A DNA stretch of 38,811 nt from a virus (IMGVR_UViG_3300030294_000092); one strand, 5' to 3'. Counted from the stretch's first letter, positions 17,878 through 38,811 are shown. Numbers and translations are program-made. The notes: generated by a model from the letters alone, not told the origin.

Positions 17878-19125
17878 TTACTGAGCTGGCTCCAGCCTAT
17901 CCATACCTGGAAGGGAAGTAGCACCTGGAAGGAGCCAGTGGCCGTTGCCACGTTGCTGGAGGATCAGGTAGCCGGAACGGACGGCTCCGGTAATGACAGC
18001 TTCGAAATCCTGCATCTTAGGGAAGTGGGAGTGGACGAAGCGATAGGCTTCTTCGTAAGGGCAGCCTCCTCGTTTGGCCACATACCAGATTAGACGTTCG
18101 GCGTAGACAGCATCTTCGGACTTGCCGATTTTTGAGAAGACAAACTGCATATCAGGTTCGAGGTCGGTGACCATCTGGTCAGCTAGGGCGAGGTGTTCGG
18201 CTTCGATGACGAGGCGGTCGCCCTCGGCTGCAGCTAAGATCATGGCTAGTTTGTGGATGTGGGTTTGCTTTCGGGCGAGATAACCTCCGAAGCGTTCGTC
18301 GTCGAGGTGGAGGTGTTTGGCAGAGTAGTGGCGGTCGTACCATGCCTTGCCCCAGACTTTAGCCTCTGTAGAGAGCTTGTATTCGCCCACGAGGGTTGAG
18401 ATTTGGCTGAGATCTTCGACTAACCGTTGGGCGATTTGCTTCATATTCTCCGGGACAAAATCACCTGGATAAGCCACGAGTTTATCTTTTTTGTCAGCAT
18501 AGACAAACACACAGCGGGAAGTAAACCCTCCTCCGATCATGTATTCTGGGAAATTACCAGCGATCCAAGCGGGAGTCGTGCAGGCAATGAGATTGATCCA
18601 AGGGTTCTCGACGATGTCACAACCAGATCCCTTTGTTTTCTTCTCAAACGCCCCTTGCTTCCCATCCCACAGTGACACCAGGAGATCGACCATTTCCTTA
18701 TCCTGAGGATTGAGTAGATTGCCAAACTCAGAAGATTCGATTGTGAGGGCCGACATCGCATGGAATTCTCCTTCGTATTCGTAGGAAATGGTGGCTTCGG
18801 CAAAGCCGGTTACGAGAGCTTGCCATGTCACGACATCGGGGCCGAACTTGATGTCAGGGACTTTTTTGAGAAGTGACATTCCGATGGTGGCAGTGGTTGA
18901 CTTTGAGACGATCCCAGGTGGAGCCACGAGGATGATGTAGAAGTTAGGATACCAGCGGAAGTAGGCCATGTCGATCCAAACATGACGGCGAAGCGCTCCA
19001 GCGACTGTGGAAACAGCCGTCCAAAAGTGCATGTGAGGCGGGGCTTCGGAGAAGGCCGCATATTCCATGAAGGCCTTGATCCAGTTAGGATAGTGTCGTC
19101 TGCTCATTACCCGCAAGCTCCCCAT
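17878..19125 (-). CDS. DUF3987-like P-loop NTPase (possible replicative helicase or primase-associated protein)
   Basis: The pattern HFWTAVSTVAGALRRHVWID...FYIILVAPPGIVSKSTTA resembles DUF3987/VirE-type phage proteins, from memory. An alternative start, ATG 19107, forms TAATG with the polymerase stop and has a GGGAG SD. Confidence 0.45.
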   Translation of the reverse strand: MGSLRVMSRRHYPNWIKAFMEYAAFSEAPPHMHFWTAVSTVAGALRRHVWIDMAYFRWYPNFYIILVAPPGIVSKSTTATIGMSLLKKVPDIKFGPDVVTWQALVTGFAEATISYEYEGEFHAMSALTIESSEFGNLLNPQDKEMVDLLVSLWDGKQGAFEKKTKGSGCDIVENPWINLIACTTPAWIAGNFPEYMIGGGFTSRCVFVYADKKDKLVAYPGDFVPENMKQIAQRLVEDLSQISTLVGEYKLSTEAKVWGKAWYDRHYSAKHLHLDDERFGGYLARKQTHIHKLAMILAAAEGDRLVIEAEHLALADQMVTDLEPDMQFVFSKIGKSEDAVYAERLIWYVAKRGGCPYEEAYRFVHSHFPKMQDFEAVITGAVRSGYLILQQRGNGHWLLPGATSLPGMDRLEPAQ

Positions 19126-21559: not shown

Positions 21560-22891
21560 TCATAGCATAGCCGGTTCAGAGTCGAGGGCATTGAGACGGT
21601 TGACTGAGATACCGTAATATTCGGAATTTAGTTCAAGTCCCGTAGCATAGAGCTTAAGCCCGTGGGCCGCTGGGAAAATTGTCCCTGAGCCTGCGAAAGC
21701 ATCGAGAACAGTGTCGCCGGGGCTGGTCGAACGCTTGAGCAGGTCGATGTAGAGTTCAACAGGCTTATTGGCTCCGTGGGTGAGATTCTCCTCGAGCTTG
21801 CAAGGGATAACGTCAGGGTAGATGCCAGTGACTTTTCGACCACCTTTAAGGGCATAGAGAATATATTCATGCTGTCTCCTAGGGCCTTGGTCGGGAAGGG
21901 GTACACGGCCAGAACCGAGTTTGTAGACGATGATAGGGGTGCGGAATACATACCAGCCAGCAGCTTGCATCTTGGCCTTGAGGAGGTGGAATTTATCGAA
22001 ATCACAGAAGATGTAAGCATGGGCTTGAGGCTTTGCCACGCGGAAGGCCTCTGAGCAGAAGGCGTCCATGAGCTTATTCCAAGCTTCCGGACTATCATCA
22101 TAATGATGCTCTGAATTAACCATTTTCCCCCCACCGTCTCCAAAGTTCTGGGCGTTCATCCCATAAGGTGGGTCAGTGAGGATAACGTCAAATTGATTGT
22201 CAGGGCTTTCGGCCATCCACTGCAGACAGTCAACGTGGAATAGCTTGTGTGCAGAGGAGTTATAAGAAACACCGACAGTTTCCGCCAGCCGTTGGTGTTT
22301 TTGCCGAGCTTCCTCACGTTTAAGGGCTTTGAAAGCTTCTTTTTCGTTCTTGGCTCCGGATACCAGAGGATTGGAGAGATGGTCGGCGAGGAGAATTGAC
22401 TGGCGGTTTGTCGTGTAGTCAGCCGAAGCTTGACCACCGCTTTCTGATACTTCGCGGATCGTGTCCGCGATTGAGTGTGATTGGCCCACCATCTCGGCTT
22501 GAGCAGTACGCAGTCGATGGAGACGGGCAAGGGCTTCCGAGCGTTCCTGCCAAGTAAGATCTTGACGCTTGAGATTTTCATCGAGTTCGGCCTCTTCGGC
22601 TTCGAGGGGGGTTAGTTCGCCAAGGGTGACGATGGGGAGGTGATCGGGGGGGATTTGGAGGCCGTTGTGGCGCGTTCCGTCTCCGAGGAGCCAAATAGTC
22701 TCTAGGGCGCGCAATCGACGCTCGCCGGCCACAAGAACCGGCCCCTCGAGGGTTTCTCGCACAACAATCGGGTGGAGTAGCCCAAGACTGGAAATTGAGT
22801 TTGCGAGGTCTGTCAGAGCCTCGGGATCAAATTCTTTCCGCTGGCGATCAGGGGAGATGATTAGTTTCGAACGGTGGATGTGGGAAGTCAT
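21560..22891 (-). CDS. ParB-like nuclease domain fused to an N6-adenine/N4-cytosine DNA methyltransferase
   Basis: The N-terminus IISPDRQRKEFD...LGLLHPIVVRE...VLVAGERRLRA is ParB/Srx-like. DVILTDPPYG is motif IV (DPPY). VLDAFAGSGTIFPAA is motif I. This order is that of the beta class. Confidence 0.85.
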   Translation of the reverse strand: MTSHIHRSKLIISPDRQRKEFDPEALTDLANSISSLGLLHPIVVRETLEGPVLVAGERRLRALETIWLLGDGTRHNGLQIPPDHLPIVTLGELTPLEAEEAELDENLKRQDLTWQERSEALARLHRLRTAQAEMVGQSHSIADTIREVSESGGQASADYTTNRQSILLADHLSNPLVSGAKNEKEAFKALKREEARQKHQRLAETVGVSYNSSAHKLFHVDCLQWMAESPDNQFDVILTDPPYGMNAQNFGDGGGKMVNSEHHYDDSPEAWNKLMDAFCSEAFRVAKPQAHAYIFCDFDKFHLLKAKMQAAGWYVFRTPIIVYKLGSGRVPLPDQGPRRQHEYILYALKGGRKVTGIYPDVIPCKLEENLTHGANKPVELYIDLLKRSTSPGDTVLDAFAGSGTIFPAAHGLKLYATGLELNSEYYGISVNRLNALDSEPAML

Positions 22892-23235
22892 TGGGCTTGC
22901 TCCGGCGTGAGGTCGGCTTCTTTGATGAAAACCCCGTCGATCATACGACCCTTGCGGTCTTTGATTTCATGCCAGGCAAGATTGGCGGAAGCTGTGAGGG
23001 ATAGACCAAGCTGTCGGGTAATGATCGTCATAATGACAAGCATGTCACCGAAGGAGTCTTCGATCTTGATTTTATCCTGACGGGCTATGCCATTAGCCAG
23101 TTCGCCAAGCTCCTCCATTAGTTTAACCATCTGGCGAAAGGGGTCAGAGCCTTTGACAAGGTTGCGTTCCTCTGCCCATTCGGCAAACTTAGGAACGAGC
23201 TGATCCAGGGTGAGATAGGGGAGAATTGTGGTCAC
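22888..23235 (-). CDS. mazG: MazG-like nucleoside triphosphate pyrophosphohydrolase (115 aa, GTG start)
   Basis: The pattern LMEELGELANGIARQD...EDSFGDMLVIMTII matches the EExxE...ExxD MazG helix pair. GGAAGGAAG SD. ATGA overlap with the methyltransferase start. Confidence 0.75.
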   Translation of the reverse strand: MTTILPYLTLDQLVPKFAEWAEERNLVKGSDPFRQMVKLMEELGELANGIARQDKIKIEDSFGDMLVIMTIITRQLGLSLTASANLAWHEIKDRKGRMIDGVFIKEADLTPEQAQ

Positions 23236-23309: not shown

Positions 23310-23756
23310 TTAAGCCTTGGCGATTTTCTTGATTTCGGCATAAACATCTTCGCCGTTGATCCGGTGGGAAACGAGGACCTTGGCCAGCCGGCCCTGGATT
23401 GCACCGAAAGAGAAGGGCTCGCCAGGCTTGTTCAGATCGAGAGCCTCGCGGATGCGACCGAGGCCGATGTTTTTGCCCTTGGAGAAGTCCATCGCGCCGG
23501 TTTCGGTCAGATCGAGCATCTGCTGCTGAGTGACCTTGACAGTATCGCGGCCAAGAAGGGCCTTGACGTTGTCGTCGAGAATGTCCCAGACGATTTCGAG
23601 CTTCACGCCAGAGGAGGAGCCATCGCGGCTCGACCAAGGCTTAATATCGACTTTCTCGGCAAGGGCTTGGTATTCGCCGGCAGGGACGGGGATGACCTTG
23701 GTGTCGTTGGCATCGGTGTAGGAGGTGTTAAGGAAGGTGTTGGGATCGAATGACAT
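23310..23756 (-). CDS. Putative single-stranded DNA-binding protein (DUF669-like)
   Basis: MSFDPNTFLN...IPVPAGEYQALAEKVDIKPW...LEIVWDILDD resembles the DUF669 phage SSB family that accompanies Sak4 ATPases. Strong AAGGAAA SD and its own terminator suggest high expression. Confidence 0.55.
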   Translation of the reverse strand: MSFDPNTFLNTSYTDANDTKVIPVPAGEYQALAEKVDIKPWSSRDGSSSGVKLEIVWDILDDNVKALLGRDTVKVTQQQMLDLTETGAMDFSKGKNIGLGRIREALDLNKPGEPFSFGAIQGRLAKVLVSHRINGEDVYAEIKKIAKA

Positions 23757-23839
23757 GAGATGTTTCCTTGGTTTGAGATATGGGGCTTTGAACTAGAGAA
23801 TAGACTAGGAGGCCCCTGCACCTAGCTATGGGAAAGGGA

Positions 23840-24685
23840 TTAGTTCGAGGTATTGCGGCTGATCCACTTGGTCAGGATCGTCGCAAACGTCGGGGGAATG
23901 TCAGACTGAATAGGCAAAGACCTCGTTTTCACGTCAGCCATTGTCGAGGCCGTGTCCCAAGTCCATTTGGTGCCGGAACGGGCAGTCAGAATAACGTCTG
24001 AAAACATGGCTGGGAACTTCGGAGCGATGGCCTTACCAAGCGTTGAAACCATCAGCTTCACCCCGCCGAGGACTGCGTCGACTTCCCGCTCGACGTGAGC
24101 AAGGAGAACGAAGTGGCAGGCACAATGATCACAAAGCATCTGAACGAGTTTGATGACTTGATCCTGGGCAATGCCCCAGTCAGATTGGTTTTTAACTGCC
24201 TTCCCACCGACTACGAGGGACATAGCGCACTGGGCAATGCCGGTGGCTCCATCGACGACCAAGACTCGGGTTTGATCCCAAGTGTTCACCGCGCCAAACT
24301 TCTCTCCGGTTCGATCGTCGGGGAAGTTATTGAGGGCTTCGAGAAGCGAGATGAATTGATTGTGCTTGGACTTGTTCGGGTCGGACATTTTGGCGAGGGA
24401 ATCAAGGTTCAAGGTGTTGATGTTCTTCGCATTCTGCATCATCTCTGTGAACGAGGCCACAGGGGCTTGAACCTTATGCCAGTGGAGGTTGGAAGGAATT
24501 TCCTTCCCAGCATCCTTCCAATAGCCGAGGAGAGATTCCATGCCGGCTTCGAGAGCGAGGTAGAAGACTTCTACGCCGGTGTCGACCAGTGTGCCGATGC
24601 TGTGCGTTTTGCCTGTGCCGGAAGGTCCCATGAGCAGCACATTCAAACCTGGCAGGGTGAAGGGAGGTTTCAAATCGACGGACAT
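23840..24685 (-). CDS. Sak4-like (AAA_24) RecA-fold ATPase / recombination mediator
   Basis: Walker A LLMGPSGTGKTHS; Walker B VLVVDGATG. ATG 24685 has an AAAGGAA SD, whereas the longer track ORF begins at a TTG (24742) overlapping the upstream gene. Confidence 0.7.
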   Translation of the reverse strand: MSVDLKPPFTLPGLNVLLMGPSGTGKTHSIGTLVDTGVEVFYLALEAGMESLLGYWKDAGKEIPSNLHWHKVQAPVASFTEMMQNAKNINTLNLDSLAKMSDPNKSKHNQFISLLEALNNFPDDRTGEKFGAVNTWDQTRVLVVDGATGIAQCAMSLVVGGKAVKNQSDWGIAQDQVIKLVQMLCDHCACHFVLLAHVEREVDAVLGGVKLMVSTLGKAIAPKFPAMFSDVILTARSGTKWTWDTASTMADVKTRSLPIQSDIPPTFATILTKWISRNTSN

Positions 24686-24698
24686 TTGGGCAGTTCCT

Positions 24699-25022
24699 TT
24701 AGTCGAGGTTGTGAGGATGGCTAGGGTGGGCGAGGTAGTCAAGCTCTGAATTTAGCTGGTAGAGGGCAATGGGGAGAGGAACTGGCCAGCCCACAAGTTC
24801 CAAAGCTTCAACAGAACCCTGGATAGCATAAGGCGTAGGAGGGCAGGCTCGACAGCAACCGATCCTGAATTTATAAGGTCGGAGGCTCTCCCCTTCGTAA
24901 GCTCTCATATGGGCATAGGCTTCTCCGCAAGTTCCACATAGCCACTTGATCGACCAGGCTCCATGGGGAAGTTGTGGGTAGTCCACAACCCCTCCAGAGA
25001 ATAACCACTCTCGCCTACGCAT
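24699..25022 (-). CDS. Small Cys-rich hypothetical protein (107 aa)
   Basis: CGTCGE...GCCRACPP looks like a zinc-binding pattern. The 8-nt overlap ATGCGTAG with the nuclease gene suggests translational coupling. Confidence 0.55.
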   Translation of the reverse strand: MRRREWLFSGGVVDYPQLPHGAWSIKWLCGTCGEAYAHMRAYEGESLRPYKFRIGCCRACPPTPYAIQGSVEALELVGWPVPLPIALYQLNSELDYLAHPSHPHNLD

Positions 25023-25959
25023 GGAAGCTTTCGAGATAGGCGTTGTAGTCTTCCATGGACTGTTCCTGGCGGGCGAGAGGGTTCCAGACTCTTTGAACGT
25101 GGTAGGTCGAGAGCCATGCTTCGGGGTCGGAGGACTTGCAAACAGAGGTGAGGGCGCAGCCGCCGTATTCAGCGCAAGCGTGGTCGAGGTTGTAGTCCCA
25201 CCAGCCGTCTTTCCAGCACTGGATCATGCGCTCAATATCGCGGCAGGTTTGATCAAGCCAGCGGTTGACTTCATAAGGGCTGCGGTAGGTGAGGACTTGC
25301 TGAGTGTCATACTTTGTCTTAAGGATGGAAACTCCTCGGATGCAGACACCGGCTGGGTTGAGGCCATATTGCTGTGCGGCCCAGCAGTAGCCGGTGAATT
25401 GACTGCGCATTTCCCACTGCTTAGCCCATGAAGCCCCAAGGGAGGTTGTGGTCTTTTCATCGTAGATGTAGACCCCGCCGTAGGCTTCCGCGATCATGTC
25501 ACTCCGGCCCGTGTAGAGGATAGGGTCGCCAGTGACTGGGTGATTGATTGGCAGAGGGCAGGCAAAAGAGAACTCAATTCCTGACTTTCCATGGGAGAAC
25601 TTAACTGGTGTTGCTCCATCTGCTCCCAGCGGGTAAGCGTTGAAGTAAAATTCGAGAGCGCCCGCAGTGCGTTCAAGTGATTTGGCACTGTCGGGTGGAC
25701 ACTCAAAGTCTCCGTAGTGAGTGATAAGCGAAGCCAGGCCTGCTGCAACGGCATCGGGAGCGGCCTGCCCTTCTTCGTAGAATGCCACACGAGCCGCTTC
25801 CACTCCTGATGCAAAAGCACCACCTGCGATAAGGTGGACGGACTCGCTGGCGGGTTTCCAATGCTGGAGATAGGTTCGGAAAGCTTTCTGGGGGCATGAG
25901 CGGAAAGTCCCAAGGGTGGTGGAGTCGATGGCGACGGGGAAGCGGATGGAGTTCGGCAT
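25015..25959 (-). CDS. PD-(D/E)XK nuclease (Cas4/RecB-like exonuclease with a probable Fe-S Cys cluster)
   Basis: GRSDMIAEAYGGVYIYDEKTT supplies D...D-E-K. An N-terminal Cys (FRSCPQKAF) plus the C-terminal CAEYGGCALTSVC follow the arrangement of Cas4/AddB-type clusters. Confidence 0.7.
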   Translation of the reverse strand: MPNSIRFPVAIDSTTLGTFRSCPQKAFRTYLQHWKPASESVHLIAGGAFASGVEAARVAFYEEGQAAPDAVAAGLASLITHYGDFECPPDSAKSLERTAGALEFYFNAYPLGADGATPVKFSHGKSGIEFSFACPLPINHPVTGDPILYTGRSDMIAEAYGGVYIYDEKTTTSLGASWAKQWEMRSQFTGYCWAAQQYGLNPAGVCIRGVSILKTKYDTQQVLTYRSPYEVNRWLDQTCRDIERMIQCWKDGWWDYNLDHACAEYGGCALTSVCKSSDPEAWLSTYHVQRVWNPLARQEQSMEDYNAYLESFHA

Positions 25960-26231
25960 CAGTAGGGCACCTTGTCAAATTCGGCATCCTCAACCTGGGG
26001 GTCAGACTTAGGAGCTTCGAGAGCTGGGACTCGAATATCAGCGGCAAGGATTTTCGAAGCTGCTTCTGCTCTGAAACGATCAAGGGCCAGGGCACAGATT
26101 TCTTGAATAGCCGCAGCTTCTTCAGCGGTGAAATTAATCTGCTGGCGGAAATTTTCATCTTGGAGGGCGAAATGACCAGAGATAGGGTGGCTTTGCATAT
26201 AGGTGTCGAGGAAGACGGTGGAGATATACAT
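25959..26231 (-). CDS. Hypothetical protein (90 aa)
   Basis: ATG 26231 is preceded by an AAGGAAA SD and the CCCCTGCC leader core. The longer 26285 start would overlap the upstream gene by 35 nt. Confidence 0.5.
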   Translation of the reverse strand: MYISTVFLDTYMQSHPISGHFALQDENFRQQINFTAEEAAAIQEICALALDRFRAEAASKILAADIRVPALEAPKSDPQVEDAEFDKVPY

Positions 26232-26250
26232 GGCAGGGGTTTCCTTGTGG

Positions 26251-26460
26251 TTAGAGGTCAAGACCGAGTTCTTTGAGAAGATCATCCCCGGAAGGTGCTG
26301 CTGCTTTCGCCTTTGGGGCAGCTTTGGCAGGTGCCATGTTGAGACGTTCTTGCCGGAGGAAGGCGATACCTTCTTTCACATCGTCAAGGGTCATGGTTCC
26401 CTCGCGGGCCTTTTGTCGGAGTTCTGCGATACGTTGCTGGGTAGGGAGGGAGACGGTCAT
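26251..26460 (-). CDS. Hypothetical protein (69 aa) ending in the DDLLKELGL motif
   Basis: TGATG-type coupling with the upstream gene. The C-terminal Lys/Ala/Pro linker plus DDLLKELGLDL matches the C-termini of the 30120 and 34519 proteins. Confidence 0.55.
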   Translation of the reverse strand: MTVSLPTQQRIAELRQKAREGTMTLDDVKEGIAFLRQERLNMAPAKAAPKAKAAAPSGDDLLKELGLDL

Positions 26461-26810
26461 CAGAGCTGCTCCAGTTCCACAACCAACGCCGCAAGGGCAG
26501 GATCATTTCGAAGGTGAGCATACTTGGAAAGTGAAGCCTGGGCTGCTGCCGCCCGATCGAGCTGAGCAACAATTTCGGCTTTACGAGCAAGCTTGGTAAG
26601 ATGGTCCCGATAGCCTTGTAAGCTGACTGCCCCAACGGCTATCTTGTTGCCGGGATATTCGGCAGCTTCAACCTCGACAAGGCTGGTAAGAGTATAACCA
26701 GTGGATGGAGCATCCACGATGATAAGATCACCAGTCTGCCAATCCCCCTCGGGAATGGTGTAGGAATAGCGCTTGGAAGACCCTTGGAAAGTTACTTTTG
26801 CGGTAGGCAT
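26460..26810 (-). CDS. Hypothetical protein (116 aa)
   Basis: ATG 26810 is preceded by an AGGAG SD at a good spacing. The upstream part of track ORF 26460..26912 covers an intergenic hairpin. Confidence 0.55.
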   Translation of the reverse strand: MPTAKVTFQGSSKRYSYTIPEGDWQTGDLIIVDAPSTGYTLTSLVEVEAAEYPGNKIAVGAVSLQGYRDHLTKLARKAEIVAQLDRAAAAQASLSKYAHLRNDPALAALVVELEQL

Positions 26811-26828
26811 TGGCTTGGCTCCTATGTC

Positions 26829-26866
26829 GAAAACTACGGGGATTTGAGAGTTAGAATGCCCGTAGT
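26829..26866 (-). terminator. Hairpin plus short U-tract (attenuator or terminator candidate) built from a CTACGGG/CCCGTAG pair
   Basis: On the - strand: ACTACGGG, an 18-nt loop, CCCGTAGT, then TTTTCG. It lies between the stop at 26891 and the start at 26810. Confidence 0.4.
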
Positions 26867-26890
26867 GTTGGGATGGGTCAAATGGAATAT

Positions 26891-27130
26891 TTAGCTGAGA
26901 GCTAACGCCCATTGCCGAAGGTAGGTTGAGTAGAGTCCCTTGAGGCGATAGGGGTTTTCACCACCCTCCAGCCAAAGGTTGGTGTAACCTTCTTCCTTAT
27001 CAGGGCATAGGACAACTATCCGATCTGCTCTGATAGTAATGGGCCGATCATCCCCAAGCGTCATATTCACAATCCTCGGTCGGAAGGTGTTCTTCCCAGC
27101 AACGGTTCGAGAGAGGTCTTCACCCAACAT
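26891..27130 (-). CDS. Hypothetical protein (79 aa)
   Basis: ATG 27130 is preceded by GGGAGGAAC (a strong SD) and overlaps the helicase stop by 11 nt. Confidence 0.55.
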   Translation of the reverse strand: MLGEDLSRTVAGKNTFRPRIVNMTLGDDRPITIRADRIVVLCPDKEEGYTNLWLEGGENPYRLKGLYSTYLRQWALALS

Positions 27131-28553
27131 AGAGTTCCTCCCGCTGGCGGGTGCAGGCGACATAGAGAGCGCGGAAAGCCTCCGATCGGTTCCTATTCAG
27201 CATCAGGTCTTCTAAATCAACGAATGTTTTGAGATAACTTGACCCTTGGCTCCGGTGGGAAGTGATAGCATAGGAATGCCGGACTTCATGGAAGGCTTCC
27301 TTGAGGGACCAGAATTCCTTCCATTTATACCGCTTGCCTCCTCGGGCTTCAGCAGAGAGTTCGGTGAGTTTGTTGTTGAGGGCAAAGGCTCCAGCTGGGG
27401 TCAGCGTTCGGATAGTCTTCTTCATTCCAGTTTCGAGTTCGACGAGGAGGTTCCAAACTTCATACTCTCGATAGGACGGATGCTGACCGAGTTGGACTTT
27501 GAGGATTTGGGCTTCTTCGTCCGTTCGCATGAAGGTCACATCCTCGAGGTCTTTGAGGTGGGTAGTGGCAACGATCTTGTCCTCGGGTAGCCACTGGTTT
27601 TGGCGGGCTTCGACGAGGCCAAAGATGTGCCCACGGATGAAGGCGTTGTACTTGTCAACAGTGACGTTTCGCCATGCGATCACCTTGGCGTCTCCAGTTT
27701 TGAAGAGTTCGAGGTTCTCGACGATCTTGTCGAGCCATTCGGGCTTGCTGACGCGGTAGACAGGAGCATTGGTTTCGATCTTGATCGAAGGGAAGGGGTT
27801 ATCGACCACGTTGCGAATCTTGGTCGCGAGTTCGAGCATTGAAGAACCGTAGCGCTTGACCTCGGTGAGAAGGGACTGGTTTGGAAGCTTCCAAACGGGG
27901 GTTGAGGTTTCCCCAATGGGGGGAAGCTGGGCAGGATCGCCCGTGAAGAGGAATGGAACACCCCAGTTGGCGAATGCTTGCCGGATAGCTTCGAAGAGGA
28001 AGCGGTTGATCATCGAGGCTTCGTCAACGACGATGAGTTTAAAGTGGGAGAAATCGACTGGTTCCTCGGGGACAGTTAGTTCCTTGACTTCGCCATTGGG
28101 CTGGAGGGAGAGACCGAGAAGGGAGTAGATCGTTGCGGTTTTGCACTCGGTTAGACCGGCGGTGTCGAGATAGCCTCGGAGGACTTTGACTGCTTTGTTG
28201 GTCGGAGCAGTGAAGCAGATCTGGGAGGGTTTGATGTTACGAGCTGCTTCGGGTGGAGTGTCTTGGTCGAGGGGGTAGAGGCCGGTTCTGGCAAGATAAG
28301 CCATGAGGTAGGTTTTGCCAGTGCCCGCATAGCCCATGAGGGTGTAGAAGACGGGGCCGGACTGGAACCAATCAATGATGGAGGCGACCGCAGCAGCTTG
28401 TTCCATGGTGGGGGTGAAGGTGGGGGTTTCATCTTCGGCTTCGAGGATGTGTGCAATGGCATTGTCTTCTGCACACTCGGGGCAGTCCATCCCGTTAAAG
28501 GGCAAGAGCTTGTCACAGACAAAACAGCGACGTTCGGCAGGGTCAAAGAGCAT
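27120..28553 (-). CDS. SF1B DNA helicase (RecD/Dda/Pif1-like) with an N-terminal zinc ribbon
   Basis: CFVCDK...CPEC forms the ribbon. Walker A LMGYAGTGKTYL; Walker B LIVVDEASMI. The C-terminus AITSHRSQGSSY...LYVACTRQREELYV corresponds to motifs V/VI. Confidence 0.85.
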   Translation of the reverse strand: MLFDPAERRCFVCDKLLPFNGMDCPECAEDNAIAHILEAEDETPTFTPTMEQAAAVASIIDWFQSGPVFYTLMGYAGTGKTYLMAYLARTGLYPLDQDTPPEAARNIKPSQICFTAPTNKAVKVLRGYLDTAGLTECKTATIYSLLGLSLQPNGEVKELTVPEEPVDFSHFKLIVVDEASMINRFLFEAIRQAFANWGVPFLFTGDPAQLPPIGETSTPVWKLPNQSLLTEVKRYGSSMLELATKIRNVVDNPFPSIKIETNAPVYRVSKPEWLDKIVENLELFKTGDAKVIAWRNVTVDKYNAFIRGHIFGLVEARQNQWLPEDKIVATTHLKDLEDVTFMRTDEEAQILKVQLGQHPSYREYEVWNLLVELETGMKKTIRTLTPAGAFALNNKLTELSAEARGGKRYKWKEFWSLKEAFHEVRHSYAITSHRSQGSSYLKTFVDLEDLMLNRNRSEAFRALYVACTRQREELYVG

Positions 28554-29032: not shown

Positions 29033-29212
29033 CTAACCCTCCCGTGCTTCCACCCAATCTCGAAGGAGCTGGGTGATCAGTGTTGAATAGGCCCCATAGG
29101 GAACCCGCTGTTCCAGCTCCGAATGCAGTAGGGTTTCCAACCGAGCGTGGAGGGAGGAAGGGATGTTGAATTCCAGCCTACGCGGCCGGTCGATTTTACG
29201 AGGGTTGACCAT
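29033..29212 (-). CDS. Arc/Mnt/CopG-type ribbon-helix-helix DNA-binding protein (59 aa)
   Basis: RRLEFNIPSSLHARLETLL...GAYSTLITQLLRDWVEA follows the beta-alpha-alpha layout of P22 Arc (PQFNLRWPREVLDLVRK...SEIYQRVMESF). ATG 29212 has an AGGAAG SD. Confidence 0.6.
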   Translation of the reverse strand: MVNPRKIDRPRRLEFNIPSSLHARLETLLHSELEQRVPYGAYSTLITQLLRDWVEAREG

Positions 29213-29711
29213 TAATATCTTCCTGAATATAAGCCCCAGATGGGGTGATGGGCTGTTCGGTTTTTGGCATGGCTTTTGCATCACCGAGCCAGAAGTCATG
29301 GTCTTCACAGCAGCTGGAGCAGATGTGTGTCTGATGCGGCTGGATCAGGGTTTCCTTTGGCAGCCCAAGGTTTGGACGCTGAACCCTCGACCAGCGGAGA
29401 GTTTCGGGCTTGGAAACGAGGCACTGGGTTTCCATATACTGGAGGAAGATATGATGGACTGATCCACACCCATCGCAAGTTTGTTCAGTGAACATCGCGA
29501 CAGTGGCGATGGAGGCCCACCGTTCGGCTTCAACCTCCTGCATGATGGAGCGATAGGCTTCACTAGCTTCTTGCCTGACTGCCGTGGGCAAACGCATGTT
29601 GCCCTTTTTCTTCTTCAAAGTATCGAGGTCGGCAGCCCGCTTGGACTTTTTGTCCTGGGCAGCAAGGGCGACGGAAAGCTCGGCTTCGAGTTCGAGGAGG
29701 AAGTCAGACAT
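29196..29711 (-). CDS. Hypothetical protein (171 aa) with an N-terminal coiled coil and CxxC...CxxCC motifs
   Basis: ATG 29711 has a GGGAGG SD 5 nt after the upstream stop. CDGCGS and CSSCCEDH suggest zinc binding. Confidence 0.55.
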   Translation of the reverse strand: MSDFLLELEAELSVALAAQDKKSKRAADLDTLKKKKGNMRLPTAVRQEASEAYRSIMQEVEAERWASIATVAMFTEQTCDGCGSVHHIFLQYMETQCLVSKPETLRWSRVQRPNLGLPKETLIQPHQTHICSSCCEDHDFWLGDAKAMPKTEQPITPSGAYIQEDINGQPS

Positions 29712-29715
29712 TAGC

Positions 29716-29958
29716 TCAAGCCTCCCTTCCGAACCAGAGGTTTTTAACATAAGGCTCGGTGAAGCGGTGATAGCCCCGATCGAAGTTTTTATGGTGGAAA
29801 GTGTCGAGAAGAGCTACAGCGGCTCGCGAATCATCCGGCATCCCCTTGGGCCAATGCTTCCAAGCTCCGAGTTGGAACTCTCGGCTTTTGCTGTCATAGT
29901 TGCTGGGAACGAGGCCCTTGCGGCGCTTGGCCTGATAGCCCGAGATTTCCTTGCTCAT
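29716..29958 (-). CDS. Hypothetical protein (80 aa)
   Basis: ATG 29958 has a GGAG SD that is partly sequestered in a CCGTAGG/CCTACGG hairpin (29969-29987). It is the first gene after the 30052-30093 terminator. Confidence 0.5.
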   Translation of the reverse strand: MSKEISGYQAKRRKGLVPSNYDSKSREFQLGAWKHWPKGMPDDSRAAVALLDTFHHKNFDRGYHRFTEPYVKNLWFGREA

Positions 29959-30051: not shown

Positions 30052-30093
30052 AACAAAAGAAAAAGCCCCTAGAGGGCGGTTCCTCTAGGGGCT
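30052..30093 (-). terminator. Rho-independent terminator (- strand)
   Basis: On the - strand: agcccctagagg, loop aaccgc, cctctaggggct (12-bp perfect stem), followed by ttttcttttg. Confidence 0.85.
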
Positions 30094-30119
30094 TAATCAG
30101 CCAATGGGTTGGAGTTGGG

Positions 30120-30713
30120 TTACTCGCCCTTGGGCTTCTTGGCAGGAGCTTTCGGTGCCGAGCCGAGGCCCAGTTCGCCGAGCAGGCCATCCGTGTCGAC
30201 AGTCGATTTCGACTTGGTTGCCTTGTTGGCTTCAAGACGTTCGATGATCGGACGGATCTTGTCGGTCTTGCGGAGAGCGAGCTTTTCAGCAGATGTCTTA
30301 ACTGCGAGGTAGGCCTTGATCTCCTCGACCGAGCGGCCCGAGGCTTCGACGAGAGCCTTGAGCAGGACAGAAGTCCCAGCGAAAGCACCAGCTTCGCGAC
30401 GAATCGTCCATTCGCCGGCAGTCAGACGGGTGATCAGATCATCAATAGCGAGGACGGCGTCGGCAATGTCGGTTTCGCCTGCGATGGCATCACCGAGCTT
30501 CTGCTCAGCACCGTGGGCGGCGAAGCGGGTCAGGAGCACCGTGGGGACGATAAAGGTGCGCGTTTCGCCGTTGACGAAGTCGAGAGTCAGGGAAATTTCG
30601 CCCGCGTCGGAGATCGAAGAGGTCTTGATCAGCTTCTGCTTCGAGCCAAATTCAGCCACGCGGCCATCGGTGAGAGTGACAGGGGTCTTGGTGGGCTTGG
30701 TAACTTCAGCCAT
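30120..30713 (-). CDS. Abundant-looking early protein (197 aa) of unknown family; paralog of 34519..35058
   Basis: It has its own promoter-like box (30773-30787), a GAAAGGAA SD and a strong terminator. Shared blocks with the 34519 protein: AHG..QK..DA.A, L..GEW..R, LALR, I..IIE, D.LL..LGL. Confidence 0.7.
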   Translation of the reverse strand: MAEVTKPTKTPVTLTDGRVAEFGSKQKLIKTSSISDAGEISLTLDFVNGETRTFIVPTVLLTRFAAHGAEQKLGDAIAGETDIADAVLAIDDLITRLTAGEWTIRREAGAFAGTSVLLKALVEASGRSVEEIKAYLAVKTSAEKLALRKTDKIRPIIERLEANKATKSKSTVDTDGLLGELGLGSAPKAPAKKPKGE

Positions 30714-30772
30714 TTGGAGTTCCTTTCAGTGGACAGGGTTGTTGGTTGCCGTTGTTAGTTATGACGGGAGGA

Positions 30773-30787
30773 GGCCCCCCCGGTCAA
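30773..30787 (-). promoter_or_regulatory. TTGACC-G7-CC box (candidate -35 plus G-tract promoter element) upstream of 30713
   Basis: On the - strand: TTGACCGGGGGGGCC, followed 17-18 nt later by TCATAA/CATAAC. The same box type occurs at 33814, 34125 and 36147 on the + strand. Confidence 0.4.
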
Positions 30788-33813: not shown

Positions 33814-33829
33814 TTGACGGGGGGCCGAT
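33814..33829 (+). promoter_or_regulatory. TTGACG-G5-CCGAT box (copy without an obvious downstream gene)
   Basis: TTGACGGGGGGCCGAT shares ACGGGGGGCCGAT with 34128-34140. No convincing -10 element follows (TACCCG). Confidence 0.3.
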
Positions 33830-34124: not shown

Positions 34125-34140
34125 TGAACGGGGGGCCGAT
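34125..34140 (+). promoter_or_regulatory. TGAACG-G5-CCGAT box, a candidate promoter for the + strand cassette
   Basis: TGAACGGGGGGCCGAT is followed 16 nt later by AAAAAT. It lies about 105 nt upstream of ATG 34245. Confidence 0.35.
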
Positions 34141-34244: not shown

Positions 34245-34439
34245 ATGACCAAAATTAAGCTAACCCACCGTGGGGCAAACCATGAGATCAACCTCGCCCG
34301 GCTCCCCTTGGAAAGCCAAAAATACCTACTGGAGCAAGGTTTGCGGACCTACCTAGAGGATAGCCTCGCCGCTGGGGTCCCGGCGAACGCGGCTCTAGCC
34401 AAACTTCATATCTTGCCTGCCGCAAATAACCCGCGATAA
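34245..34439 (+). CDS. Hypothetical protein (64 aa), possibly a small DNA-binding/regulatory protein
   Basis: GGAGGA SD 7 nt upstream of the ATG. EINLARLPLESQKYLLEQGLRTYLEDSL is loosely RHH-like (weak evidence). Confidence 0.55.
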   Translation: MTKIKLTHRGANHEINLARLPLESQKYLLEQGLRTYLEDSLAAGVPANAALAKLHILPAANNPR

Positions 34440-34442
34440 CCC

Positions 34443-34474
34443 TAGAGGCTAGGCTCCAAACCCCCTAGCCTCTA
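34443..34474 (+). other. 11-bp perfect hairpin between the two cassette genes (no U-tract)
   Basis: tagaggctagg (34443-34453) pairs with cctagcctcta (34464-34474). Confidence 0.6.
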
Positions 34475-34518
34475 TAGATAGCGCGGATTGCTGTCAACCC
34501 GACAAAGGAATGACTACC

Positions 34519-35058
34519 ATGGCTAAAAAGTCCCTAATCGAAACAACCATTGCTGCTGATTTTTCGGCAATCACCCTCAAGGTTGAGGGGGCGGGTGCTA
34601 TCAATATCACTGTCGCCAATCTATCGGATGAATTGCGCGCTAGAGCATTGGCCCATGGGTTGGTGCAAAAAATCTCTGACGCCGCCGCGATTAAACGCGA
34701 TGACTTGACCGGCGACCCTCTCGCCGATGCAAAAACAAAATTCGCGGCAATGGAGGCAGTTGCCAACCGTCTAATTGACGGCGAGTGGGCCGCCCGCAAT
34801 GGTGACGGCACCGGGCCGGTTAGCGGGATTATCTACCTCGCATTTGAGCAATGGGCGCTCGCCAAGGCCACATCCGCCAAAAAGCCCCTACTCCCCGCTG
34901 CTATCCGCGCGGCCTATGCTGGGAAGGATCGTGCTGGGCAGCTCGCCCTCCGCAACGTCCCCGAAATCGCCGCGATCATTGAGGAGATCAAGGTCAAACG
35001 TGGCGCGGGGAAAACCGTGGGTTCGGGTGATGCTCTATTAGCAGATTTGGGCCTCTAA
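34519..35058 (+). CDS. Paralog of the 30120..30713 early protein (179 aa), unknown family
   Basis: ATG 34519 lies 9 nt after an AAGGA SD (ATG 34510 is too close to it). Conserved blocks are shared with the 30120 protein, and it ends in GDALLADLGL. Confidence 0.7.
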   Translation: MAKKSLIETTIAADFSAITLKVEGAGAINITVANLSDELRARALAHGLVQKISDAAAIKRDDLTGDPLADAKTKFAAMEAVANRLIDGEWAARNGDGTGPVSGIIYLAFEQWALAKATSAKKPLLPAAIRAAYAGKDRAGQLALRNVPEIAAIIEEIKVKRGAGKTVGSGDALLADLGL

Positions 35059-35070
35059 TCCACCCAACCT

Positions 35071-35101
35071 AGGGCAGGGTTATTCCTGCCCTCATTTTTA
35101 G
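35071..35101 (+). terminator. Rho-independent terminator
   Basis: agggcagg (35071-35078), loop gttatt, cctgccct (35085-35092), followed by cattttta. Confidence 0.7.
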
Positions 35102-35126
35102 ACCTATCCGGTGAGGCAATTATCCT

Positions 35127-35240
35127 ATGACCCATCCCCCCCGCCACCCACTCCTAATCGCATTGGGATGGCTAGCTCTCGCGGTTGTTCTGTCGGCAGG
35201 CGCTGTCTCACTAACCCTCCTACTCGCGGCCATGCCCTAA
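35127..35240 (+). CDS. Candidate micro-ORF: 37-aa single-pass membrane peptide MTHPPRHPLLIALGWLALAVVLSAGAVSLTLLLAAMP
   Basis: My own translation, ATG 35127 to TAA 35238-35240 (below the 60-aa cutoff of the ORF track). One uninterrupted hydrophobic helix follows a basic N-terminus. Weak SD (GAGG about 11 nt upstream). Bracketed by two terminators. Confidence 0.35.
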   Translation: MTHPPRHPLLIALGWLALAVVLSAGAVSLTLLLAAMP

Positions 35241-35277
35241 CCCCTCGGTTAGTCTGCTGCCCTAACTCAGCCCCCAA

Positions 35278-35309
35278 CCCGCTAGGCCTAACCGTCTAGC
35301 GGGTTTTTT
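35278..35309 (+). terminator. Rho-independent terminator
   Basis: cccgctag (35278-35285), a 10-nt loop, ctagcggg (35296-35303), followed by tttttt (35304-35309). Confidence 0.8.
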
Positions 35310-35760
35310 CGTGCCCATATCCGTTCTCATTTTGTCCGACGATTTGAGTAGGGTCTAGGGCGTTTGGCTATAGAGATAGCGGGATAGCCTCTAATCGCCC
35401 TCATGGCCCACCAATCCGAGGATTTGACCCTATCCCCCGGCCATGCCGCCATCACCTATCACCTCTCCCCCACCCCTCCATTATCAAACAGGGTAGGGGT
35501 CACAGGAGGGGTCTCCACCCATCTCCCAATGTGCCATGTAACATTCCGGCCCCCCTCCATCCTCGGGGATCCCATTGTGTTTTTCATCTCCCCGGTATCT
35601 CTCTTCTCGTAATTTTTTTTCTCTGAGCACAGAGGATACAAATGGGGGGATGGTGGGAGAGGTGGGCCGATCGGTGTGTCGGTTGCATACTACACCATCC
35701 CCCGTCTCTCCTCGCTATGTTATCAACGTCACCCCGTTTGCTACATGGTACTATGGCTAA

Positions 35761-36004
35761 CGGGTAGCCACCCCCCCGGCTACCCCTAGCCCGTCCTGGC
35801 CCATCCCCTGCCATCACGGCCCACCCTTCACTAGCCCCTCCATCGGCCCACCGGCCCCACCCTTGCGCCTGCCCTATCCCTCGCCAGCCACCGGCCCCCG
35901 CCAGCCACCATTCCCTCTCACCTCACCCCCCTCCCTTGCCCCTAGAAAACCAGTGGGGGTGGGTCTTCCCGGTTGGGGGTAGGGCTAAGGGGGGTGTTTA
36001 GGGG
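35761..36004 (+). repeat. Strand-asymmetric block: about 180 nt C-rich (with GGCCCACC and GCCAGCCACC repeats) switching to about 50 nt of G-runs with a G-quadruplex-type pattern
   Basis: My count for 35821-35880 is 35 C and 8 G. GCCAGCCACC at 35883-35892 and 35900-35909. GGCCCACC at 35818 and 35845 (also at 35405, and inverted at 35661). G-runs G5-N2-G3-N4-G6-N6-G4 at 35975-36004. Confidence 0.8.
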
Positions 36005-36146
36005 CATTACAGCTCTTCGTGCATGGCTACCTTTCAACCCTCCGTAATCCTCTCAGCTACTTCACTCCTAGTTCAAAGTCCTACCGGAGGAAAATCCCAA
36101 AGCCCCTGAAGAATCCGGAGGGTTGGAAGTTCAACTAGCCGGAGGG

Positions 36147-36176
36147 TTGACGGGGGGCCAAGAGGACTGCTCAAAT
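36147..36176 (+). promoter_or_regulatory. TTGACG-G5-CC box plus TCAAAT, a candidate promoter for the late arm
   Basis: TTGACGGGGGGCCA (36147-36160), with TCAAAT at 36171-36176 after an 18-nt spacer. A second TTGACG at 36183 is followed 17 nt later by TAAGTT. TerS starts at 36245. Confidence 0.4.
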
Positions 36177-36221
36177 CATTGCTTGACGGCCCGCCGGTCG
36201 AGGGCTAAGTTCCTCCCAACT

Positions 36222-36235
36222 CCCCTGCCATAAGG
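36222..36235 (+). promoter_or_regulatory. CCCCTGCCA-T-AAGG leader motif upstream of the putative TerS gene
   Basis: CCCCTGCCATAAGGA matches CCCCTGCCAAGGA at 3925 and 6822, with a one-nt insertion. Confidence 0.35.
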
Positions 36236-36244
36236 ACACCCTCC

Positions 36245-36838
36245 ATGATCGACTATGAGAAGATTGCGGATAGCATCGACTCCCCAGACCCCGCGCCCGT
36301 GGGCCCCTCGGCTTATGCCCCAAACCGCGATCCTGGCAAATACGTTGGAATCGCTTCAGCAAAGGGCTATGGCCAAGGCCCCGAAGATGGCTACAACGGC
36401 ACACCCCGCATCCAAAAGTGCCGTTACACCCATGAAGCCCTGATTGACGTAATCATCGCTGAGCCTTCCCTCAAGCAATATGAACTCGCAGCGCGGTTTG
36501 ATCGCTCGACTCAGTGGGTCACCGTCGTCATGGGGTCCGACGCCTTTCAAGCCGCTCTCGCTAAGCGCCGGGATGAACTCACTGACCCTTTTCTCATAGC
36601 CACGATTGAAGAGCGTTTTCGTGGCTTAGCACAGCAATCTCTCCAAGTCATCGCGGCAAACCTCGAAAAGACCCAAAACGCTGATATCGCCCTCAAGGCT
36701 CTCGATATTTCGGCTAAAGCTCTTGGTTTCGGCTCCCGTTCTGCTGGCCAAACCAACATCCAAAATAACTTCGTAGTAGAGTTGCCGGGAAAGATCACGG
36801 ATCAAACTACCTGGGCAAAAACCTACACTCAAGAGTGA
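36245..36838 (+). CDS. Putative terminase small subunit (197 aa)
   Basis: First gene of the late arm, upstream of terL. The HTH-like segment LKQYELAARFDRSTQWVTVVMGSDAF is followed by helical oligomerisation-like sequence. Call is by position and HTH only. Confidence 0.5.
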   Translation: MIDYEKIADSIDSPDPAPVGPSAYAPNRDPGKYVGIASAKGYGQGPEDGYNGTPRIQKCRYTHEALIDVIIAEPSLKQYELAARFDRSTQWVTVVMGSDAFQAALAKRRDELTDPFLIATIEERFRGLAQQSLQVIAANLEKTQNADIALKALDISAKALGFGSRSAGQTNIQNNFVVELPGKITDQTTWAKTYTQE

Positions 36839-37761: not shown

Positions 37762-38811
37762 ATGTCTCCTCCTACTACCCAAATTAGCATCTGGAAACCT
37801 CAGGAAGGCCCCCAGACAGCACTTCTCCAGTGCCCGATCTTCGAAGTCTTCTACGGTGGTGCCCGAGGTGGAGGGAAGACTGAATCTTCTATCGGGGACT
37901 GGCTTCAGCACGCTAACCTCTATGGTGAGAACGCCATCGGAATCTTTGTCCGTCGGAAGTTCAAGCAACTTGCTGAGGTCATTGCTCGAACGAAGCAACT
38001 TTTCCCAAAACTCGGAGCCAAATACAATGAACAAAAAGCCGAATGGCTCATGCCTGGAGGCGCTCGGCTTAAGTTCGTCTACCTTGAAAGGGATTCTGAT
38101 GCCGAAGAATACCAAGGCCACAACTACACCCGCGTCTATGTGGAAGAAGTTACTAACTTTCCCAGTCCTGGCCCTATTGACAAGCTCCGTGCTACTCTCC
38201 GCTCCGGCGCTGGTGTGCCTGTGGGTATGCGACTGACGGGCAACCCCGGAGGTCCAGGCCATAACTGGGTTAAAAAGCGCTACATCGACCCAGACCCCAG
38301 AGGCTTCAAAATAATAGAAGAAACCTGCGATGTGGAGATTGCCGATGAAATCCAAACAGTCAGCCTCTCGCGGGTCTTCATCCCGTCGAAGCTTGGCGAT
38401 AACATGCTCCTGCTTCGCAATGATCCTACTTACGTCCTGCGTCTCCGTCAATCTGGCTCCGAAGCTCTCGTCAAAGCTTGGCTCGAAGGAAACTGGGATA
38501 TTGTCGACGGAGCCTACTTCACTGAACTCGACGAGCACCTTCATGGCAGGGATGGAGATATCATCCGCTGGGCCCCGCCTGCAACTGTCCGCTTCCGTGC
38601 CTTTGACTGGGGTAGTGCAAAGCCTTTCTCGGTGGGTTGGTGGGCGATCGCGGACGGAACTTGGCCCAGAGACAATCCCCTCCCTTCAGGGGCAATCTTC
38701 CGCTATCGGGAATGGTACGGAGCGTCAGGGGTTAACAAAGGCCTCGGCTCCACAGCCGATGTTGTTGCCAAAGAAATCCTTAAGCAAGAAGCCGGTGAGC
38801 GTATTCGATAC
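37762..38811 (+). CDS. terL: Terminase large subunit, N-terminal ATPase part plus the start of the nuclease domain. Open at the window end; continues at nt 128.
   Basis: My translation: MSPPTTQISIWKPQEG...FYGGARGGGKTES (Walker A), RVYVEEVTNF (Walker B), LTGNPGGPGHNWVKKRY, FRAFDWGSAKPFSVGWW (nuclease Asp). There is no stop before 38811. It is missing from the ORF track because it lacks a stop. Confidence 0.92.
   Translation, partial: MSPPTTQISIWKPQEGPQTALLQCPIFEVFYGGARGGGKTESSIGDWLQHANLYGENAIGIFVRRKFKQLAEVIARTKQLFPKLGAKYNEQKAEWLMPGGARLKFVYLERDSDAEEYQGHNYTRVYVEEVTNFPSPGPIDKLRATLRSGAGVPVGMRLTGNPGGPGHNWVKKRYIDPDPRGFKIIEETCDVEIADEIQTVSLSRVFIPSKLGDNMLLLRNDPTYVLRLRQSGSEALVKAWLEGNWDIVDGAYFTELDEHLHGRDGDIIRWAPPATVRFRAFDWGSAKPFSVGWWAIADGTWPRDNPLPSGAIFRYREWYGASGVNKGLGSTADVVAKEILKQEAGERIRY
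38685..38811. repeat. Terminal overlap, second copy (identical to nt 1-127)
   Basis: Direct comparison. Confidence 0.95.

Follow-up and report, generated by a model that had tools for sequence, protein, structure and literature searches.

Two diverged paralogs of an unrecognised phage protein family share a C-terminal tail with an otherwise unrelated small protein

Why would a phage of modest genome size maintain two diverged copies of a gene, one in each direction of transcription, for a protein that resembles no known family? This question is raised by IMGVR_UViG_3300030294_000092, a viral DNA stretch of 38,811 nucleotides (nt), here called the window, which encodes a protein of 197 amino acids (aa; paralog A) on its minus strand and a protein of 179 aa (paralog B) on its plus strand (Table 1). 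An earlier note on this DNA had described the two as diverged paralogs and had proposed that they form a regulator/anti-regulator pair or represent early and late variants of one function. Comparison of A and B with their relatives and with the remainder of the window leads us to a different reading. We tentatively favour, while rating its probability as somewhat short of even, that A and B are abundant early hub or adaptor proteins of the replication/recombination module of this phage, the C-terminal tail of which recruits a partner that is also used by a third, small protein (c5).

Two anciently duplicated members of one family

A and B align over 188 columns, i.e., near the full length of both, with 29% identity and 45% positives, and this pairwise alignment is significant (BLASTP, E = 1e-10). 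A profile of 144 diverse family members matches, among the open reading frames (ORFs) of the window, only A (4.6e-59) and B (1.7e-53). The blocks that had been picked out by eye in the earlier note are indeed invariant or near-invariant columns in a 72-sequence alignment of both subfamilies: H67, G68, Q71, K72, D75, A78, R96, L97, G100 and W102, and further A146-L147-R148, I156-I157-E158, D173, L177, L178, L181 and G182. Several residues are unchanged throughout the 144 diverse members. For B, the ATG at position 34519 was preferred as the start over that at 34510 because its orthologs start with MAKK or MARK and because AAAGGA lies 9 nt before 34519. AlphaFold2 models from deep alignments (predicted local distance difference test (pLDDT) of 86.6 for A and 85.6 for B) have the same topology: three strands are followed by two long helices, the invariant G-x-W leads into a disordered loop, and after this come four helices, a linker and a tail helix. 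The A model has an extra N-terminal hairpin compared to the B model. A begins with this beta-hairpin, continues with the three-stranded sheet and the helices, and carries after these the tail motif VDTDGLLGELGL and a C-terminal extension rich in Lys, Pro and Ala. A Foldseek search of the A model against BFVD retrieved an A-like viral protein (E = 1.3e-18) and a B-like one (E = 6.6e-4), and noise only beyond the family itself. A and B are, as had been claimed, diverged paralogs, and their duplication is ancient.

The family to which they belong is large. More than 551 relatives of A and more than 130 of B occur in a database clustered at 90%, nearly all on metagenomic contigs, of which the longest measure 38-42 kb, and a two-subfamily profile retrieves 3,022 clusters (50% identity) at E <= 1e-3, a number that falls to 1,282 at E <= 1e-10; the length is 165-235 aa in almost all of them. 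One candidate relative, P0335 (2,888 aa), was discarded as a low-complexity tandem-repeat protein with 17 spurious profile-matching stretches. The earlier note was also right in not recognising the family: A, B and all 144 diverse members are without a match in Pfam and NCBIfam, and two profile searches of the PDB by sequence gave noise only (E >= 0.22). The family is partly covered by an existing phage orthologous group of unknown function and without annotation, PHROG 28928, which is matched by 8 of the 144 members (best E = 3e-6) and not by A or B themselves. Foldseek searches against the PDB likewise gave nothing significant (best E = 0.076 for the A model and 0.13 for the B model); the weak matches of the PDB and BFVD searches to the Hsp70 substrate-binding domain, Erf, Pur-alpha and SSV1 A100 were neither significant nor consistent and were set aside.

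With A, B, the family consensus and a short member as queries, tblastn against 50,697 phage records matched only the uncultured phage MW202489.1 and the cultured cyanophage Microcystis phage Mel-JY34. The members of MW202489.1 (36808-37356 and 38874-39404) lie on the same strand and are labelled hypothetical protein in GenBank. Among 185,579 reference genomes, the family was found on only four contigs of metagenome-assembled genomes (MAGs), three of which are phage-genome-like (38-46 kb) and one of which measures 4.9 kb, and no prophages carrying it were found there; it is apparently confined to lytic phages. For more distant representative proteins, only contigs of 2-5 kb were returned as context.

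We compared the gene order in 53 IMG/VR loci, four MAG loci and several contigs, the ORFs of which were profile-searched and clustered. The family was found in almost every related locus. Approximately 30 loci hold two copies, always one of the B type and one of the A type; the B type always adjoins the 197-aa terminase-small-like gene and the A type follows 2-5 kb deeper in the replication/recombination operon. The genes keep the order terminase-small-like, B, c4, (c15), A, Zn-finger protein, ribbon-helix-helix (RHH)-like protein, Dda, c5, PD-(D/E)XK, c22, Sak4, c17, ParB-methyltransferase and polymerase. Still more distant phages than those with two copies possess one short copy of 118-160 aa, equidistant from the A and B types, which sits directly upstream of the PD-(D/E)XK exonuclease and Sak4. 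The duplication is not a peculiarity of this one 38-kb phage but ancient and conserved across many relatives.

The location of one paralog in each direction of transcription is true for the window; it does not have the meaning that had been attached to it. B is inverted, as in the window, in relatives with at least ~58% identity to A, whereas in more distant relatives (loci L024-L038 and MW202489.1) the two copies share a strand and head the early replication/recombination operon. Opposed orientation is thus the derived state, brought about by a clade-specific inversion, and no sign of early and late versions of one function. That B is not a late variant follows also from the window itself, since two terminator-like sites and ~1.15 kb without conserved ORFs part B from the late operon.

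Among close relatives, the median identity to orthologs is 66% for A, comparable with 63% for the Dda-like helicase, 69% for the ParB-methyltransferase and 59% for the portal protein, and the small genes near A reach only 38-46%. B (49%) evolves faster than A. Judged from these identities, A is as conserved as the replication enzymes and does not look like a fast-evolving accessory gene. This bears on an alternative in which the proteins of the family are the first to be made once the DNA has entered and serve host takeover or anti-defence (e.g., as inhibitors of a host nuclease such as RecBCD/AddAB or of a restriction or abortive-infection system), with a tail that docks on a host protein. 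Such a role would fit a gene at the head of the early operon, near the left end of the linear Mel-JY34 record, in a family that is restricted to phages (with the four MAG contigs mentioned above) and has no known fold or domain, and the short form is located just upstream of an exonuclease/annealase module, a layout of the short-form clade that resembles the gam-bet-exo arrangement of phage lambda. However, anti-defence genes are usually patchily distributed and fast-evolving, whereas this family is near-universal in its lineage, is invariant at several residues in 144 diverse members and has in A a protein as conserved as replication enzymes. The protein is also not strongly acidic and so no obvious DNA mimic. 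We consider this explanation improbable.

A C-terminal tail in three proteins

The tail motif D-x-D-x-LL-x-E-LGL forms the extreme C-terminus in most members (the median extension beyond it is 0 residues), and A-type proteins have extra residues beyond it; K/A/P-rich extensions sit at different places in different members. The tail is predicted to be a short acidic amphipathic helix, preceded by a flexible, Lys-rich basic linker. In the A model the tail helix has moderate confidence (pLDDT ~77), and the B model gives low pLDDT for linker and tail, residues 164-168 being disordered.

The tail is not confined to the family. The small protein c5 ends in DDLLxELGL, the tail common to A and B. When c5 is aligned with the family by hhalign, the alignment is confined to the 16-residue tail (E = 4e-5), and the possibility that c5 represents a third, truncated paralog was, therefore, rejected. 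The tail of c5 is a shared short motif on a protein that is otherwise unrelated to the family.

The tails of the three proteins also vary together. Tails from the same genome are more alike than shuffled pairs for A and B (identity 0.69 vs. a shuffled mean of 0.54), for A and c5 (0.54 vs. 0.47) and for B and c5 (0.55 vs. 0.43), and in none of these comparisons did any of 20,000 shuffles reach the observed value. A caution against reading these values as the mark of a common partner is that the shuffle test ignores shared ancestry and that gene conversion between A and B could mimic co-variation. Neither, however, explains why the unrelated c5 follows the same tail changes. Examples of such changes are LLADFG in A, B and c5 of locus L017 and LLGDLF in A and B of L020; MW202489.1 has LLAGLE, and tails ending in ...LLADF, ...LLAGF, ...LLDEF or ...LLDNF occur in L028, L031 and L033.

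Peptides that bind the sliding clamp (QL[SD]LF or QLxLxL, e.g., the C-terminus QLVLGL of DNA polymerase IV) can be compared with the family tail, which is likewise short, hydrophobic and C-terminal and ends in LGL or LF. The family tail differs in that it has no conserved Gln, has its hydrophobic residues at i, i+1, i+4 and i+6, is acidic and is predicted to be helical. A beta-clamp-binding motif was rejected because of this spacing and because tail sequences from 27 genomes are without Gln and without the alternating Leu pattern.

The tail could also be a self-association element that binds the body of a neighbouring family member, as in cooperative coating or in A-B hetero-oligomers, or a degradation tag. 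Its core (LL..L) and the surface of the body are both highly conserved, the tail helix of A is modelled with the moderate confidence mentioned above, and c5 could serve as a competitor; in gp32 of phage T4 a terminal peptide serves cooperativity (PMC11551737). The low confidence of the tail in the B model argues against self-association, and the residues beyond the motif in A-type proteins indicate that a free C-terminus is not required, which argues against a classical C-terminal degron. We assign these uses of the tail a low probability.

A possible hub on a non-OB fold

The proposal that A and B are hub proteins was made because their design is of the type known from single-stranded DNA-binding proteins (SSBs) and because no recognisable SSB accompanies Sak4, the Dda-like helicase and the family-A polymerase in this phage. 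The folded body, a three-stranded sheet and helices carrying the invariant His-Gly...Gln-Lys...Asp...Arg...Trp surface, would bind nucleic acid or a large assembly, and the proteins would be made early in abundant, stoichiometric amounts, possibly with a division of labour between A and B. The tail would recruit a common partner, and c5 would use the same docking site. Candidate partners are Sak4, the PD-(D/E)XK exonuclease, the Dda-like helicase, the family-A DNA polymerase, the body of the family itself and a host hub protein. This would be the logic of SSB, T4 gp32 or T7 gp2.5 (body, linker and acidic tip) on a fold other than the oligonucleotide/oligosaccharide-binding (OB) fold. The claim is that the proteins work like an SSB and not that they are members of the SSB family, since there is neither an OB fold nor homology.

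The likeness to SSB-type hubs (Escherichia coli SSB, HK620 SSB, T4 gp32 and T7 gp2.5) comprises the body, the flexible linker and the acidic/hydrophobic tip, the location of the gene in a phage replication/recombination module with Sak4, a Dda-like helicase and a family-A polymerase, and its insulation by terminators, which fits high expression. Some family tails (...LLADF, ...LLDEF and ...LLDNF) also end, like those of SSB (DDDIPF) and HK620 SSB (NDYPPF), in an acidic residue (Asn once) followed by Phe. Sak4 of phage HK620 depends on the six C-terminal residues of its cognate SSB (PMC5928155), and T4 gp32 docks on Dda through an amphipathic C-terminal helix (PMC11551737). There are also clear differences. 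In the models, a meander of 3-5 strands leads into seven helices, which is not an OB fold, no structural or sequence match to an SSB was obtained (including Pfam SSB families for A, B and the 144 members), and binding of single-stranded DNA is putative. The family tail is predicted to be helical and is leucine-based, and it is common to two diverged paralogs and an unrelated small protein.

Expression signals are consistent with the proposed abundance. Both genes have, as the earlier note had stated, a Shine-Dalgarno-like AAAGGA before them and terminator-like hairpins after them (Table 1). Across the relatives, 37 of 81 family genes (46%) and 11 of 14 c17 genes have a strong hairpin with a T-run in the 90 nt that follow them, compared to 0-6% of every other conserved gene. 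This enrichment suggests that these proteins are needed in larger amounts than their neighbours and supports the abundant expression that had been suggested for both.

Several observations weigh against a hub function. The enrichment of terminators reflects abundance only indirectly. Searches of the family gave no nucleic-acid-binding domain, and the Foldseek results given above offer no OB fold. The proteins are near-neutral overall (isoelectric point of ~8.7-8.8 for A and B; family median 5.9). The invariant surface could be a nucleic-acid or partner site, but the His/Lys/Asp/Trp cluster could equally be an enzyme active site or a ligand site. The tail does not fit the beta-clamp motif, nor is the parallel with T4 exact: a T4-type gp32 ends in DDTDLDDLLNDL, and it is this extreme terminus that resembles the family tail, whereas Dda binds gp32 residues 248-270 (PMC11551737), for which reason the extreme terminus was rejected as the Dda site. 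Finally, another candidate, c17, which is encoded beside Sak4, may be the real SSB of this phage; its family matches (DUF3127 and DUF669) are both sub-threshold. In the short-form clade, the gene after c17 (C34) has an SSB-like acidic tail (...DGIPQFDND).

The predicted topology would also suit a divergent single-strand annealing protein with a Rad52/Erf-like beta-beta-beta-alpha core, or a recombination mediator, paired with the PD-(D/E)XK exonuclease. The three strands are followed by a long helix with conserved polar and basic residues and lead to a helical C-terminal part, the short form is encoded immediately upstream of the exonuclease, which is a neighbour in some relatives, and three of the weak BFVD matches bear the name "essential recombination function protein" (E = 0.046-0.17). 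These Erf-named matches are, however, not significant (probability 0.13-0.18, TM-score ~0.13), the best 50 Foldseek matches in the PDB contain no Rad52, RecT or Red-beta structure for either model, and none of the 144 members matches a Pfam annealase family. Moreover, the phage already has an annealase in Sak4, and annealases bind the tails of SSBs rather than carrying an acidic tail themselves. An annealing function thus seems very unlikely.

The sequences upstream of the genes bear on the regulatory role proposed in the earlier note. The TTGAC-G7 box is indeed present upstream of A. The pattern TTGAC-N0-2-GGGGGGCC occurs in three exact copies in the window vs. 0.01 expected by chance, and all are intergenic and face the next gene, i.e., A, the unit of a 64-aa ORF and B, and the terminase-small-like gene; a fourth, degenerate copy is likewise intergenic, and no copy is located ahead of the first leftward early genes. 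Within this genome, A, B and the late operon may share a regulatory signal. In 14 relatives no upstream motif shared at the same genes was found by exact 10-mer sharing, and the box pattern has no convincing copy in loci L001-L005.

These boxes would be the promoters on which A and B act, together with the divergent control region, if the two were a pair of transcription regulators (activator/repressor or regulator/anti-regulator). B is located in that control region, the B type is in relatives always the first gene beside the divergent junction, and a box before A, before the unit that contains B and before the late operon would fit autoregulation. Residues 112-151 of A furthermore have sub-threshold helix-turn-helix (HTH)-like matches to HTH_15 (E = 0.029; 14.9 bits with a cut-off of 27.2) and FokI_D3 (E = 0.039; 14.2 bits with a cut-off of 29.2). 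B has none, the segment is interrupted by an insertion in B and lacking in the members of 118-160 aa, and no DNA-binding domain or structure was matched significantly. Low-copy regulators do not usually have conserved terminators behind their gene or a tethered tail in common with a protein such as c5, and no convincing equivalent of the boxes was found in the relatives examined. Better candidates for regulators adjoin the family genes: the RHH-like protein, the Cys-rich 184-aa protein and, in the annotation of MW202489.1, an Ogr/Delta-like zinc-finger protein. The regulator/anti-regulator pair found no support, and we regard regulation of transcription by A and B as distinctly unlikely.

Genomic setting and meaning of the family

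The ends of the window (nt 1-127 and 38685-38811) are identical, which indicates a circular assembly and a complete unit genome of 38,684 bp. The phage is podovirus-like and without its own RNA polymerase. Its plus strand encodes the portal, the major head protein, tail proteins and an amidase, and its minus strand a primase, the family-A DNA polymerase, the ParB-methyltransferase, MazG, Sak4, the PD-(D/E)XK exonuclease and the Dda-like helicase. No tRNA or Rfam elements were found in the window and no close DNA relative among the 50,697 phage records. The 197-aa gene directly before the large terminase is probably the small terminase, given its position and an HTH-like segment.

Table 1. Positions of the paralogs, the surrounding genes and the expression signals in the window.
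Feature	Position	Strand	Remarks
Paralog A (A type)	30120-30713	-	197 aa
Paralog B (B type)	34519-35058	+	179 aa; C-terminus is the tail motif SGDALLADLGL
c5	26251-26460	-	69 aa; between Dda-like helicase and PD-(D/E)XK exonuclease genes; C-terminal tail SGDDLLKELGLDL
Shine-Dalgarno-like AAAGGA for A	30721-30726	-	7 nt before ATG
Shine-Dalgarno-like AAAGGA for B	34504-34509	+	9 nt before ATG 34519
Intrinsic-terminator-like hairpin	30063-30094	-	directly after A; 13-bp stem then T-run
Terminator-like hairpin	35071-35092	+	after B; 9-bp stem
Second terminator-like hairpin	35276-35305	+	after B
Box TTGACCGGGGGGGCC	30773-30787	-	~60 nt upstream of A; likely promoter or regulatory motif
Box TTGACGGGGGGCC	33814-33826	+	faces the unit of 64-aa ORF and B
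Degenerate box copy TGAACGGGGGGCC	34125-34137	+	120 nt upstream of the 64-aa ORF preceding B
Third exact box copy	36147-36159	+	~90 nt upstream of the terminase-small-like gene
Replication/recombination module	23310-28553	-	downstream of A; travels with the family
Dda-like helicase	27120-28553	-	
PD-(D/E)XK exonuclease	25015-25959	-	
Sak4/AAA_24	23840-24742	-	
c17	23310-23756	-	148 aa; directly after Sak4; candidate non-canonical SSB
MazG-like pyrophosphatase	22888-23235	-	beside methyltransferase and polymerase genes
ParB-methyltransferase	21560-22891	-	ParB-N domain fused to N6/N4 DNA methyltransferase
Family-A DNA polymerase	19107-21494	-	
RHH-like protein	29033-29308	-	
Cys-rich protein	29196-29750	-	184 aa; CxxC...CxxCC; directly downstream of A
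64-aa ORF	34245-34439	+	co-oriented with and directly upstream of B; without family match
Imperfect inverted repeat	34428-34489		26 nt, 81% complementary, 10-nt loop; between stop codon of 64-aa ORF and start of B
Region without conserved ORF	35100-36240		~1.15 kb; between B and terminase-small-like gene
Terminase-small-like gene	36245-36838	+	opens packaging/structural operon
Large-terminase-like ORF	37762 to window end		spans the circular junction

A number of features around the two genes are of interest in their own right. The inverted repeat before B has no T-run and could serve as an operator, in attenuation or in RNA processing. The region between B and the terminase-small-like gene has a C-rich plus strand, contains short repeats here and there and is closed by a TTGAC-G6CC box; it could carry a pac site, an origin or a non-coding RNA (the Rfam search was empty), and relatives such as L004 hold several small genes there. 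A repeat search around the genes for iterons or an origin gave no clear repeat array. The genes for the Cys-rich protein and the RHH-like protein are kept beside the A type in nearly all relatives; the latter was recognised by its sequence and matches nothing in Pfam or PHROGs. Since the two ORF calls share ~110 nt, one of the starts is probably wrong. Orthologs of the polymerase in relatives carry a uracil-DNA glycosylase (UDG)-like domain ahead of the family-A polymerase domains. Of the small proteins, c4, c15 and C31 are not related to one another, and no relation was detectable between c17 and C32.

Our results show a large protein family (~3,000 clusters at 50% identity), acting like a core gene in widespread, uncultured podoviruses of ~40 kb and present in at least one cultured cyanophage (Mel-JY34), that has no structural relative and is nevertheless missing from Pfam and NCBIfam. 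They also correct an attractive reading, as the opposite orientation of the two genes reflects an inversion in one clade and not an early/late division. The tail of ~12 residues that is common to three proteins offers a concrete handle for finding the partner. In its boldest form, which we think rather unlikely, the hub proposal would make the family a new class of non-OB analogue of SSB and gp32 with a new fold, represented by two specialised paralogs, possibly a heteromer, in one widespread podovirus lineage, and the tail helix LL-x-E-LGL, which a small accessory protein also carries, would act as a docking code tuned to each lineage and organise Sak4, the PD-(D/E)XK exonuclease, Dda and the polymerase. 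Should the model of body, linker and tail hold, it would add a new fold to the few proteins that organise phage replication and recombination.

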